Shown here in pieces: positions 21,026-28,348 of a stretch of DNA of 64,000 bases (positions within the stretch are counted from its first letter, which is position 1; the number at the start of each line of letters is the position of its first letter). Source of the DNA: Erythrobacteraceae bacterium. GTDB taxonomy: Bacteria > Pseudomonadota > Alphaproteobacteria > Sphingomonadales > Sphingomonadaceae. Both the position numbers and the translations under genes were made by a program. The stretch covers positions 36,306-100,305 of the forward strand of contig JANNOJ010000015.1 of NCBI GenBank assembly GCA_031399025.1, written 5' to 3'. The notes under the pieces are model-generated. The model had not been told where the DNA came from and ran no database searches. It worked only from the letters and a program-made list of their open reading frames with translations.

Positions 21026-23129
21026 CGGCCAGCGCTACCAGGCTGTCGGGGGTCAGCACCTGCGGCAGCGTCTCACCCTCCCCGCCCGCCGGGTACCACA
21101 CATAGAGCGGCACTCCGGCCGCCCCGTGCGCGGTGAGGAAGCGCGTTATCGCCGGCTCGCGCCGGGTCCAGTCGCCGCGCATCGCCACCACGCCAGCCTC
21201 CTCGAACGCCTCGCGGGTGGCGTCGCGCTCGATCGCCACGTTCTCGTTCACCTTGCAGGTCAGGCACCAGTCGGCGGTGAACCACAGGAACACCGGCCTG
21301 CCCGAGGCGCGCGCCGCGGCCAGCGCCGCGGGGGTAAAGACCTGGGGTTGGAGCGCGCTCTCGGCGGCCCGGGCCGCCGGCGAATAGGCTTGGGGGGCCA
21401 GCACCAGGGCGACCGCCGCGAGGGCTCCGGCGACGATCGCCCGCCGGCCACCGCCGCCCTGCACGCTGGCGCTGCGCCAGGCCATCAGCAGGAGGACTGC
21501 CTGGATCGCGATCACCAGGCCGAGCGCGGCGAACCAAGCGCCGCCCAGCCGCCAGCACAGCCACAGCAAGGCTGCCGCGGCCAGGCCCATGGGCAGCGCC
21601 ATGAGCTGGCGAAAGCGTGCCATCCACGGGCCGGGCTTGGGCAGCACGCGACGCAACGCAGGAACGAAGCCGAGCGCCAGGAACGGCAGCGCCAGGCCCA
21701 GGCCGAGCGCGGCGAACAGCAGCAGCGCCGGCGCGGGAGGCAGCAGCAGCGCCGCACCCAGCGCCGCGGCCATGAAGGGCCCGGTGCACGGCGTCGCCAC
21801 GAAGGCGGCCAGCAGCCCGGTGGCGAAGGCGCTGGCGCGGCCGCCGCCGCGCGTGATCGACAGCGAGGGCAGTTCGTACAGGCCGGCGAAGTTCGCGGTG
21901 ATCGCCACGCTCAGCACCAGCAGCGCCAGCACCACGCCGGGCTCCTGCAGCTGGAACGCCCAGCCGATCTCGCTCCCGCCCGCCCGCAGCACCAGCAGCA
22001 GGCCGCCCAAGGCCACGCAGGCGAGCACCACCCCCGCGGCGTAGGCCAGCCCCTCGCGGCGCGCCTGCGTCTCGCTCTCGCCGGCGCGGGCGAGCGTCAG
22101 CGCCTTGAGGCTGAGAATGGGGAAGACGCAGGGCATGAGGTTGAGCAGCAAGCCGCCCGCAAGTGCCCCGGCGATGAGGAGCCACAGCGGCGCGCCGCCA
22201 GTCGCCAAGGCGCCCTCGCCACCGCCGAGCGGCTCGCCGCCCCAGGGCACGGCCCCGGCTGCGGCGGCGAAGCGCAAGCCATCGGTCTCGCCAAGCGCCA
22301 CGATGCCGGAAACGCGCCCGGGCTCCCGGCGCAGGCCGCCGCGCGCAATCTCGGCCACCAGCAGGTCGCCCTCGCGGCGGAAGACCTGCGGCGCGGCGTA
22401 GGCGACGGCCTGCTCCTGGGCCAGGAACACATGCGGCTGGCCGATGTCCAGGGTGGCAGGCAGCGGGATAGCGATGCGCAGCGCCTGGTCCGTGAAGGCG
22501 AAGCTGGCCTCGCTATCGAGCAGTGGCGGGACGGCCGCGCGCCAGGTGTCGAAGCGTTGGTCGCGCGCGCGCCTGCCCGGCGCCGGTTCGGTGGGCACGC
22601 GCAGGGTGAAGCTGCCGCTTTCGGGCACGCAGATCTCGTCGGTGCAGGCGAGCCACTCGGCTTCCACCGCGATCGGCACGAAGGCACCCGGAAGGCGGCC
22701 GGGCGGCACTTCCACCGGCACCAGCACGGCGTACGGCCCTTCGTAGACGTGGTTCATCAGCCCGGCGATCACCAGCTTTTGGGGCACCGGGTAGAGCGGC
22801 TCGCCCGCCTGCCAGCGTTCGGGCAGGTCCCAGGCGAGGCGCATGCCGTAGCCGGCATCGCCGGGATTGGCCCAGTAGCCGTGCCAGCCAGGCGCGGGAC
22901 GAAAGTGCAGCGCCAGGGTGAGCGTCTGCCCCGGGACTGCCGGCCCTTCGGCCACCAGCTCGGCGTCAATGTTGTTGGCCGGGGCTGCGGGCGTCTGCGC
23001 CTGGGCAGGAAACGGGCCGAGCAGGCAGGCCAGGGTCAGGCCGAGCCGCGCCAGCCAGCGCCGGGCGAAACCCCAGGCGCGGGGCCGAGCGGCCCCAAGG
23101 TCGGTAGCGATGGTTCTTGCATCGGTCAT
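21015..23129 (-). CDS. DsbD-family thiol:disulfide interchange protein
   Basis: 704 aa. Signal peptide plus periplasmic N-domain, CcdA/DsbD membrane core (LLNLMPCVFPILSLK, FVATPCTGPFM), and C-terminal thioredoxin fold with CxxC (WFTADWCLTCK). Confidence 0.85.
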   Translation of the reverse strand: MTDARTIATDLGAARPRAWGFARRWLARLGLTLACLLGPFPAQAQTPAAPANNIDAELVAEGPAVPGQTLTLALHFRPAPGWHGYWANPGDAGYGMRLAWDLPERWQAGEPLYPVPQKLVIAGLMNHVYEGPYAVLVPVEVPPGRLPGAFVPIAVEAEWLACTDEICVPESGSFTLRVPTEPAPGRRARDQRFDTWRAAVPPLLDSEASFAFTDQALRIAIPLPATLDIGQPHVFLAQEQAVAYAAPQVFRREGDLLVAEIARGGLRREPGRVSGIVALGETDGLRFAAAAGAVPWGGEPLGGGEGALATGGAPLWLLIAGALAGGLLLNLMPCVFPILSLKALTLARAGESETQARREGLAYAAGVVLACVALGGLLLVLRAGGSEIGWAFQLQEPGVVLALLVLSVAITANFAGLYELPSLSITRGGGRASAFATGLLAAFVATPCTGPFMAAALGAALLLPPAPALLLFAALGLGLALPFLALGFVPALRRVLPKPGPWMARFRQLMALPMGLAAAALLWLCWRLGGAWFAALGLVIAIQAVLLLMAWRSASVQGGGGRRAIVAGALAAVALVLAPQAYSPAARAAESALQPQVFTPAALAAARASGRPVFLWFTADWCLTCKVNENVAIERDATREAFEEAGVVAMRGDWTRREPAITRFLTAHGAAGVPLYVWYPAGGEGETLPQVLTPDSLVALAEAS

Positions 23130-27127: not shown

Positions 27128-28348
27128 ATGGACGGCGCGGACATCCTGGTTCTCGGCCTCGAAAGCTCGTGCGACGAGACCGCCGCGGCGCTGGTGACGG
27201 GAGACCGGCGGATCATCGCCCAGGTCATCGCCAGCCAGGAGGAACAGCACGCGCCCTATGGCGGCGTGGTCCCCGAGATCGCCGCCCGCGCGCATGTCGA
27301 ACGCCTCGCGCCGATGATCGCGCGGGTGCTGGACGAGGCGGGGGTCTCGCTGGCCGAATGCGACGCCATCGCCGCCACCGCCGGGCCGGGGCTCATCGGC
27401 GGGGTGATGGTGGGCCTGGTCACCGCCAAGGCGCTGGCGATGGCGACCGGCAAGCCGCTATTGGCGATCAACCACCTGGAAGGCCACGCGCTGAGCCCGC
27501 GGCTGGCGGATGCGACGCTCGCGTTCCCCTATGCGCTGCTGCTGGTCTCGGGCGGCCATTGCCAGATCCTGCGGGTGGCGGGCGTGGGGCGTTACCGGCG
27601 GCTGGCCACCACGATCGACGATGCGCTGGGCGAGGCGTTCGACAAGACCGCCAAGATCCTGGGCCTGGGCTATCCGGGGGGTCGGGCGGTCGAGCGGCTG
27701 GCCGCGAGCGGTAACCCGCGTGCGGTACCGCTGCCGCGGCCGCTTGTGGGTAGCCGGGAGCCGCATTTTTCCTTCGCCGGGCTCAAGAGCGCAGTGCTGC
27801 GCGCGAAACAGGGGCAAGTATCTGCGCAAATATCTGCGCAAAGTCCCGCTCACCCTGAGCTGGTCGAAGGGTCGTCCTTTGTTTCGGAACCGGAGCCGGG
27901 AAGGAACAACAGCCCTTCGACAAGCGCGGGACGAGCGGGGGCGGGGATGGGTCTGAGCTCGAAGCGGACCAGCGTTGGGCGATCGCCTGGTGCTTGGTCG
28001 GACGCCGACATCGCCGCCAGCTTCCAGCAGGCGGCGATCGATTGCGTCGTCGATCGGCTTGCCGTCGCCTGGCGCGATATGGGCGAAGTAAGCGCGCTGG
28101 TGGCCGCCGGCGGAGTGGCGGCCAACGGGCCGATCCGCGCCGCCCTCGAAGCCTTCGCCGGGCAGCGGAGCCTGCGCTTCGTCGTCCCCCCGGCAGCCCT
28201 GTGCACCGACAATGCGGCGATGATCGCCTGGGCCGGGGTGGAGCGCCTGGCGCTGGGCTGGACCGATCCGCTCGACGTGCCCGCCCGGCCCCGCTGGCCG
28301 CTCGACCCGGCAGCCGAGCCCGCGCGCGGCGCCGGGATCAAGGCATGA
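27128..28348 (+). CDS. tsaD: tRNA N6-adenosine threonylcarbamoyltransferase TsaD, carrying an in-frame repeat insertion
   Basis: LVLGLESSCDETAAALV, PYGGVVPEIAARAH, NHLEGHAL, DDALGEAFDKTAKILGL, FSFAGLKSAV, GGVAAN. At 406 aa it is roughly 50-60 aa longer than typical because of the insert at about 27815-27990. Confidence 0.9.
   Translation: MDGADILVLGLESSCDETAAALVTGDRRIIAQVIASQEEQHAPYGGVVPEIAARAHVERLAPMIARVLDEAGVSLAECDAIAATAGPGLIGGVMVGLVTAKALAMATGKPLLAINHLEGHALSPRLADATLAFPYALLLVSGGHCQILRVAGVGRYRRLATTIDDALGEAFDKTAKILGLGYPGGRAVERLAASGNPRAVPLPRPLVGSREPHFSFAGLKSAVLRAKQGQVSAQISAQSPAHPELVEGSSFVSEPEPGRNNSPSTSAGRAGAGMGLSSKRTSVGRSPGAWSDADIAASFQQAAIDCVVDRLAVAWRDMGEVSALVAAGGVAANGPIRAALEAFAGQRSLRFVVPPAALCTDNAAMIAWAGVERLALGWTDPLDVPARPRWPLDPAAEPARGAGIKA
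27815..27990. repeat. palindromic repetitive-element copy (PELVEG / FDKLRVSG-type) inserted in frame in tsaD
   Basis: Inverted pair GTCGAAGGG (27863-27871) / CCCTTCGAC (27913-27921). A third related arm CTGAGCTCGAAG lies at 27953-27964. Tandem TATCTGCGCAAA x2 at 27819-27842. The three reading frames give SPAHPELVEGSSF, LSWSKGRP...LRQARDERGRG and, on the other strand, KGRPFDQLRVSG, as visible in the ORF track. Confidence 0.7.

Follow-up and report, generated by a model that had tools for sequence, protein, structure and literature searches.

What is the extra segment that lies in the middle of tsaD in an Erythrobacteraceae bacterium, and how does the enzyme carry it? The gene belongs to the window analyzed here, a stretch of 64,000 nucleotides from contig JANNOJ010000015.1 of assembly GCA_031399025.1 (positions 36,306 to 100,305, forward strand). 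Alignments with orthologs and searches of the whole assembly make it likely that the segment is a copy of a dispersed, GC-rich palindromic repeat, which occupies, in frame, a variable loop at the surface of TsaD and would be translated as a disordered, tolerated stretch. The source genome, G000, comprises 2.82 Mb in 100 contigs with 68.6% GC and is 100% complete by marker genes, with 5% estimated contamination. G001 is a genome of the same genus; G003, G009, G013, G023, and G368 are genomes of other relatives, and P numbers denote TsaD proteins from a larger metagenome-derived protein collection.

The insert was delimited by protein and DNA alignment with orthologs from 29 related genomes. The G000 protein is collinear with these orthologs except between LRAKQ and WSDADIAAS, where 61 residues separate ...FSFAGLKSAVLRAKQ from WSDADIAASFQQ. 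G001 has five residues at this place (QPRGV), as compared with six (ESGxHx) in most family members; relative to G001, tsaD of G000 has gained a net 56 codons, or 168 nt. The segment is missing from G001 and from 28 of the 30 relatives aligned. Across 401 species representatives of the family, a continuous match over the insert is found in three, G000, G023, and G368, and the latter two carry the same repeat in the same frame of tsaD. The original prediction, made from the window alone, had described about 55 extra residues at 27815-27990, a length divisible by three, and an insertion rather than a native domain of the family. The alignments shift its limits by only a few bases and agree with it on the other counts. 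The peptide stretch SPAHPELVEGSSFVSEPEPGR belongs to the insert-bearing TsaD.

The core of the insert recurs throughout the genome. Repeat loci were counted over the whole assembly by a BLAST-type search, nhmmer, and a family hidden Markov model (HMM). The BLAST-type search with the insert returned dozens of partial matches on both strands, confined to its central ~95 nt, and the HMM identifies 41 non-overlapping loci in G000, 25 of them full length, with the tsaD copy ranking seventh at 74 bits. Most copies are intergenic. The widespread GC-rich palindromic repeat postulated earlier is thereby found in some 40 further copies, and the peptides ascribed to its other frames (LSWSKGRP, LRQARDERGRG, and KGRPFDQLRVSG) are present in the list of open reading frames (ORFs). 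An Rfam search of positions 27600-28200 at a permissive threshold gave only chance-level microRNA and small-RNA matches, with no intron or ribozyme.

About four to five of the 41 loci lie in frame within genes. The codon-usage classifier of gene context is rough, and our in-gene claims are limited to four copies whose host domains are confirmed by Pfam on both sides: those in tsaD, truB, dnaE, and the gene for a 2-oxoacid dehydrogenase E2 acyltransferase. The truB copy interrupts the TruB_N domain, the dnaE copy sits between the PHP and polymerase domains, and the E2 copy occupies the linker from the lipoyl to the E3-binding domain. All four use one stop-free frame of the left arm (..[A/R][P/A]ELVE[G/A]..); a TGA occurs in one of the three frames of that arm. 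Units also occur singly in some relatives, dispersed at 96-100% identity.

Two of these host genes have been occupied in other genomes as well. The truB loop holds the repeat in G000 (C10:46023-46139) and other repeat families in G003 (C1:1337303-1338337, ..PREGGDP..RLRRNDE..) and G009 (C4:90256-91290, ..AELVSA..KQVRGDD..); in G001 (C2:588193-589245) it holds a low-complexity remnant, and that genome has no remaining family copies. The dnaE insert (G000:C80:3584-3662) is orthologous in four genera (G000, G023, G009, and G013), shows decay at the protein level, and holds a further 13-codon insertion in G000. It is missing from G001 and G003.

The repeat is built from a small unit of ~27 nt, which consists of CCGYTC, four variable nucleotides (N4), a conserved 13-nt core (TGAGCYTGTCGAA), and four further nucleotides (N4') that pair with N4. 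Two such units, inverted with respect to each other, form the doublet that is the 95-nt element, and a census of G000 counts 56 units and 25 full doublets. In tsaD the doublet forms the repeat core at 27846-27938 (Table 1), and its left and right units read AHPELVEG and SPSTSAGRA in the tsaD frame. Inverted arms 41 nt apart had been noticed from the outset; they are 27 nt each (27845-27871 and 27913-27939) and 81% complementary. The place of the variable spacer is taken by a GIY-YIG gene in a gene-bearing version of the element (G000:C38:22087-22439). The G-rich tail matches the right-end outer flank of most genomic copies and mirrors their C-rich left flank.

Table 1. Positions in the window of tsaD and of the parts of its extra segment.
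Feature	Position	Strand	Description
tsaD coding sequence	27128..28348	+	406 aa; Pfam TsaD PF00814, E=1.3e-87, profile positions 2-264
Whole extra segment, GQVSAQISAQSPAHPELVEGSSFVSEPEPGRNNSPSTSAGRAGAGMGLSSKRTSVGRSPGA	27812..27994	+	codons 229-289, from alignments with relatives
Exact 12-bp tandem duplication, TATCTGCGCAAA x2	27819..27842	+	encodes part of VSAQISAQ
Left repeat unit	27846..27872	+	CCGCTC anchor, ACCC stem half, 13-nt core TGAGCTGGTCGAA, GGGT stem half
Variable spacer between units	27873..27911	+	unconserved among copies
Right repeat unit, inverted	27912..27938	-	minus strand CCGCTC / GTCC / CGCGCTTGTCGAA / GGGC
G-rich tail, GGGCGGGGATGGGT	27939..27952	+	flank composition in 25 full-length copies
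Degenerate third unit-like stretch	27953..27985	+	CTGAGCT-CGAAG..., then GACCAGCGTTGGGCGATCG resembling the right arm; inverted repeat, 74% complementary to left arm

Two further features flank the doublet within the insert. The 12-bp tandem duplication, exact as originally described, lies directly 5' of the repeat and outside the dispersed family; in the tsaD insert of G023, a comparable 6-bp duplication (CAATCC x2) occurs on the same side. The third related arm that had also been reported is CTGAGCTCGAAG at 27953-27964, a 12-mer unique in the genome. The stretch to which it belongs probably represents one more copy that has decayed or suffered an internal deletion, an assignment made without statistical support. 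Partial duplications of the right arm are found on the same side of the tsaD insert in other lineages. Upstream of the insert, by ~70 nt, a pseudo-core in the FSFAGLK codons (TTCGCCGGGCTCA, 27773-27785) shares 10 of 13 bases with the reverse-complemented 13-nt core, which is not significant. As a homing signal it was rejected: matches occur at 0.58/kb, and none lies near truB, dnaE, or the E2 gene.

The short stem around the core covaries. In an alignment of 11 copies resident in tsaD, the within-arm stems are 92% paired with 21 double changes, a result reached by none of 500 shuffles, and the pairs of stem halves seen include five complementary ones (ACCC/GGGT, GCCC/GGGC, GTGC/GCAC, GTCC/GGAC, and GGGC/GCCC). 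Pairing of the same N4 positions from arm to arm was rejected, with 56.8% paired, below the shuffle mean, and no double changes. The 54 genomic units other than those of tsaD show the within-arm pattern as well: 81.9% are paired versus a shuffle mean of 66.4%, with 40 double changes versus 17.8 (0 of 500 shuffles), and sliding the 3' partner by 1 to 3 columns in this genome-wide set leaves 28-49% pairing. The copies are related, so that there are fewer independent events than the cell counts imply; the robust part is the five distinct complementary stem types. A mini-hairpin in each arm (GCTCA-NNN-TGAGC, the thermodynamic fold of the left arm) was also rejected, its pair being unconserved in other copies, whereas N4/N4' covaries. 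The doublet as a whole folds as DNA at -24.4 kcal/mol (z = -3.2), and its arms are better conserved than its spacers.

The host gene is a genuine member of the TsaD/Kae1/Qri7 family, with a full-length profile match, the family fold, and the metal- and ATP-binding motifs. The HxxxH (HLEGH) and CTDN motifs are intact and align with those of E. coli TsaD. Synthesis of the tRNA modification N6-threonylcarbamoyladenosine (t6A) by TsaBDE is essential in nearly all bacteria. A PF00814 search of G000 returns only tsaD and one 219-aa TsaB-like gene, and a TsaE gene is present. Because t6A synthesis is essential and there is only one tsaD, the long allele must presumably work.

Structure prediction is consistent with a tolerated insertion. 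AlphaFold, run on an alignment of 51 sequences, gave a model with a mean predicted local distance difference test score (pLDDT) of 80. In this model the native helix 217-238 extends into the first ten inserted residues, residues 247-284 have pLDDT values below 50, and a helix follows at 292-318. Foldseek comparison of the modelled core with solved TsaD structures gives template modelling scores of 0.89-0.92, target-normalised. The insert is thus predicted to be a disordered loop between two helices that leaves the modelled core intact. By sequence alignment it maps to residues ~218-230 of E. coli and Salmonella TsaD, a variable loop, and the permissive surface site proposed for it at first fits this model. 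Judging from published complexes, the loop presumably points away from the TsaB and TsaE interfaces.

The same loop is filled in other members of the order. We took the best 120 TsaD matches (Sphingomonadales) from the metagenome-derived collection and inspected part of the inserts individually. About 27 of the 120 proteins are 371-410 aa long, and in all those inspected an insert derived from a repeat interrupts the protein at one shared point (...AK[E/Q]xQ / insert / [Y/W/F][S/T]DAD). The loops differ in architecture. Some have the left arm followed by the right (PELVEG...STSSGR), some the right followed by the left (STSSGR...PELVEG), one has mixed frames (P0003), two hold decayed remnants (P0018 and P0010), and one a different repeat family (P0093, ..RRPGLDPGPLASS...VPDQVRDDG..). 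The P0093 loop is filled by an unrelated repeat-type peptide, indicating that more than one repeat family uses the TsaD site. In a TsaD tree computed after removal of the insert, well-supported branches force at least 5-7 state changes. A clade of eight sequences is insert-bearing throughout with diverged spacers, which argues for vertical inheritance within it. On these sequence comparisons, occupancy of the TsaD loop is no one-off event in G000. Repeated insertion and ancient insertion with repeated loss both clearly occur, and the two are not separable here.

A candidate partner for the repeat is found at G000:C38:22087-22439, where a left and a right arm enclose an ORF of 94 aa with a GIY-YIG domain (22108-22389; Pfam GIY-YIG 8e-15). 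The nearest solved relatives of its product are the UPF0213 proteins 1zg2 and 1ywl, and no NCBIfam model matches it. In the closest orthologs, from seven genera, the left-arm core precedes the start codon by 40-42 nt, or by 85 nt in a single genome, with the right arm found at +282 to +308 of the gene; distant paralogs are without these arms. The cassette occupies the same locus in G000 and G013, is inverted there in G009, and lies elsewhere in the remaining genomes. Among 40 relatives, 16 have both repeat and gene, 20 have neither, 2 have the repeat only, and 2 the gene only (Fisher p = 4e-7, uncorrected for relatedness, with related genomes as non-independent samples). G001 has neither. A search of G000 for RAYT (Y1 HUH transposase, PF01797) gave no match.

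The C38 ORF has no stop of its own and stays open through the right arm into an RluD-like pseudouridine synthase gene, to 470 aa; the syntenic copy in G013 is likewise open, to 430 aa. A second small GIY-YIG paralog, 56% identical, lies at G000:C63:904-1170, with an nrdR-like gene on one side and the next gene on the other. A GC-rich hairpin repeat of another kind (GTTCGTCCTGAGGAGGGATCGAGG...) comes after it, a hint that each GIY-YIG paralog has its own cognate repeat.

In the window, tsaD is flanked by a divergent hemC-like gene on one side and an overlapping gpsA-like gene on the other, an order kept in relatives. Elsewhere in the assembly, an identical sequence of ~75 nt (..GGAAGTTTCGGGCCAGCTTGTCGAAGCGGGTTGCG.. 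/ ..GCCGGAAGTGCTTGAGCTTGCAGAAGTATCGCTCG..) is found within ~100 nt of many contig ends (C8, C10, C16, C17, C38, C43, C44, C48, C70, C83, and C94) and presumably represents an insertion sequence whose multiple copies interrupt the assembly.

Repeats of this general kind are known. Rickettsia palindromic elements (RPEs) are palindromic repeats found in frame in Rickettsia protein genes (Ogata et al. 2000, as cited in PMC3733652 and PMC10969869), and in-gene copies of repetitive extragenic palindromic (REP) sequences are on record for several species (Di Nocera et al. 2013, PMC3733652). The comparison with RPEs drawn in the original prediction is apt as a way of working. Like them, the present family is a dispersed palindromic repeat of ~100 nt, some copies of which lie in frame in functional housekeeping genes and add surface segments, as the 41 loci and the copies in tsaD, truB, dnaE, and the E2 gene illustrate. 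Unlike them, it resides in a GC-rich Sphingomonadales alphaproteobacterium of free-living type, not an obligate intracellular one, and its tsaD element is a doublet of a small unit with a candidate partner enzyme. Homology to RPE-1 to RPE-8 is unlikely, as judged by the organism and its base composition, not by sequence; the likeness is one of working, not of membership.

In build, the family resembles REP and REPIN elements, which occur with RAYT transposases (Nunvar 2010 and Ton-Hoang 2012, as cited in PMC11893778). In both, short structured units form inverted doublets that number in the tens, mostly between genes and occasionally within them, and both flank a single small nuclease-type gene. 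The flanked gene here is, however, GIY-YIG and not RAYT, and the unit has a conserved 13-nt loop on a short variable stem, versus the GC-rich stem, small loop, and GTAG or CGTC tag of REPs. As to miniature inverted-repeat transposable elements, the family has inverted arms, and its palindrome is prolonged by a C-rich flank on the left and a G-rich one on the right; its only coding relative has the GIY-YIG gene in place of a known transposase.

Chenal et al. (2025, PMC11893778) describe Ssn GIY-YIG single-strand nucleases with NTS and SRM hairpins in a repeat/gene/repeat arrangement with genome-wide co-occurrence; they name Sphingomonas as SRM-rich and give the sphingomonad Rhizorhabdus wittichii as an SRM example. 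They raise the hypothesis of a mobile element without testing it and do not describe in-frame colonization of genes. Our cassette resembles this system in that a small single-domain GIY-YIG gene is flanked on both sides by a hairpin repeat (at C38 and in seven genera) with which it co-occurs. It differs in the anatomy of the unit, the NTS having a 7-bp stem and a 3-nt loop (PMC11893778), and the likeness on the GIY-YIG side is one of architecture and Pfam domain, the nearest structures being UPF0213. A literature search for the 13-nt core sequence as text returned no matching paper. The phenomenon itself is thus known from RPE- and REP-like in-frame repeats, and the tsaD case is a well-supported new example. 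What the case adds is the recurrently occupied TsaD loop across Sphingomonadales, a defined unit whose invariant core is enclosed by a covarying stem, and the conserved GIY-YIG cassette.

Other accounts of the nature of the segment fare poorly. The length of the loop varies among TsaD/Kae1/Qri7 homologs, and in order-level relatives the loop is 8-11 residues longer, but a native, lineage-specific loop or domain that does not derive from a repeat is hardly conceivable when about 40 dispersed copies, mostly intergenic, share DNA-level homology with the core and the segment is missing in G001. The fragmented assembly, with its estimated contamination, could point to a chimera, or the segment could be removed as an intron or intein or by ribosomal bypass. 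Yet tsaD lies whole within a 112-kb contig, with collinear halves and the insert in frame, and comparable in-frame inserts occur at the same loop in more than 25 independent assemblies. Rfam finds no intron or ribozyme, 61 residues are too short for an intein, and the junctions lack intein-like residues. A stop-free frame and a length divisible by three are also what translation through the insert would lead one to expect, leaving an artefact or untranslated segment very improbable. Exaptation, in which the insert is kept for a function, whether by modulating the expression of tsaD-gpsA as a hairpin in DNA or RNA or by giving TsaD a new protein surface, would account for its persistence throughout one clade, for compensatory changes that maintain the unit stems even within a coding sequence, and for arms that are more conserved than spacers. 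We regard it as unlikely. Intergenic copies show the same stem covariation, which therefore reflects a constraint or turnover of the repeat itself and not a role specific to tsaD; most relatives, including the nearest, are without the insert, the peptide is predicted to be disordered, and no T-run follows the hairpin.

A more serious alternative concerns the history of the insert, not its nature. Here a single insertion in an early ancestor of the Sphingomonadales would have been passed on by vertical descent, with decay, rearrangement, and many losses, including that in G001. All insert-bearing alleles share one insertion point, the clade of eight inherits its insert with diverged spacers, the dnaE insert is orthologous in four genera and yet missing in G001 and G003, and the G001 loop (QQPRGVW), two residues longer than the usual ESGxH, could be a scar. 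Set against this, at least three loop architectures (left-right, right-left, and the P0093 family) are not interconvertible by point change. Insert-free alleles in at least five separated branches have an identical six-residue loop, so that precise deletion would have had to occur repeatedly, and in G000 the tsaD copy still ranks with those closest to the family consensus. A single ancient insertion is a credible history, though not the one we would expect. We prefer the insertion of a dispersed repeat into a permissive loop, with several points weighing against parts of that account. That the long TsaD is made and active is a presumption from its intact frame and single copy. The 25 full copies show no flanking direct repeat of the kind that a target-site duplication leaves. 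No closely related filled and empty pair that defines the junctions to the base was found; the candidates P0005 and P0010, 87% identical in DNA, were rejected as a pair since they differ by more than a simple insertion. The orthologous dnaE insert shows that such inserts can be old, so that in tsaD, too, an ancient insertion followed by several losses may have contributed more to the pattern than recurrent insertion. The 4-bp stem with its 13-nt loop is unstable alone in thermodynamic folding, which suggests that the unit stem is read by a protein. The mobility of the repeat and the role of the GIY-YIG protein are drawn from architecture and co-occurrence only, and the Ssn SRM motif HGTCWYN(0-2)YYVSBRHN(0-5)WNVSBRGN(0-2)RNCYNB is absent from the tsaD insert and from C38, with 22 occurrences in G000 versus 32-43 in shuffles.

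Under the preferred reading of an in-frame dispersed repeat, a REPIN-like inverted doublet would have entered the TsaD loop, with a local 12-bp duplication at one of its sides and, at the opposite side, fragments of decayed repeat. The GIY-YIG protein may recognize the unit on single-stranded DNA and spread or maintain the repeats, by analogy with Ssn/NTS and REP/RAYT. Insertions would land widely, and the survivors would be those in permissive loops, of a length divisible by three, and with a stop-free frame (PELVEG...STSSGR). Such a survival filter could explain why the same TsaD, DnaE, and TruB loops are occupied repeatedly in this bacterial family. We suggest with considerable reserve, as an idea that is more doubtful than probable, that the repeat is a new kind of REPIN: one with an invariant 13-nt loop and a covarying 4-bp stem, mobilized by the 94-aa GIY-YIG nuclease that it flanks and with a motif distinct from Ssn/SRM. 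Such an element would return to a few permissive or preferred sites (the TsaD loop, DnaE, and TruB), and its in-gene copies would be constrained as nucleic acid while being translated.

The tsaD insert is a well-delimited example, from outside the Rickettsiales, of what appears to be selfish hairpin DNA inside an essential, universal enzyme that it has not destroyed. Pipelines for annotation and alignment should expect repeat-encoded peptides (PELVEG...STSSGR) in the TsaD loop of Sphingomonadales, and the in-gene copies offer a natural experiment on how far TsaD, DnaE, and TruB tolerate disordered insertions. The arms and the GIY-YIG gene, together in seven genera, form a testable pair of substrate and enzyme with which to ask whether GIY-YIG nucleases spread REP-like repeats. 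If the repeat is indeed a new kind of REPIN, it would represent a GIY-YIG-driven counterpart of the REP/RAYT system.

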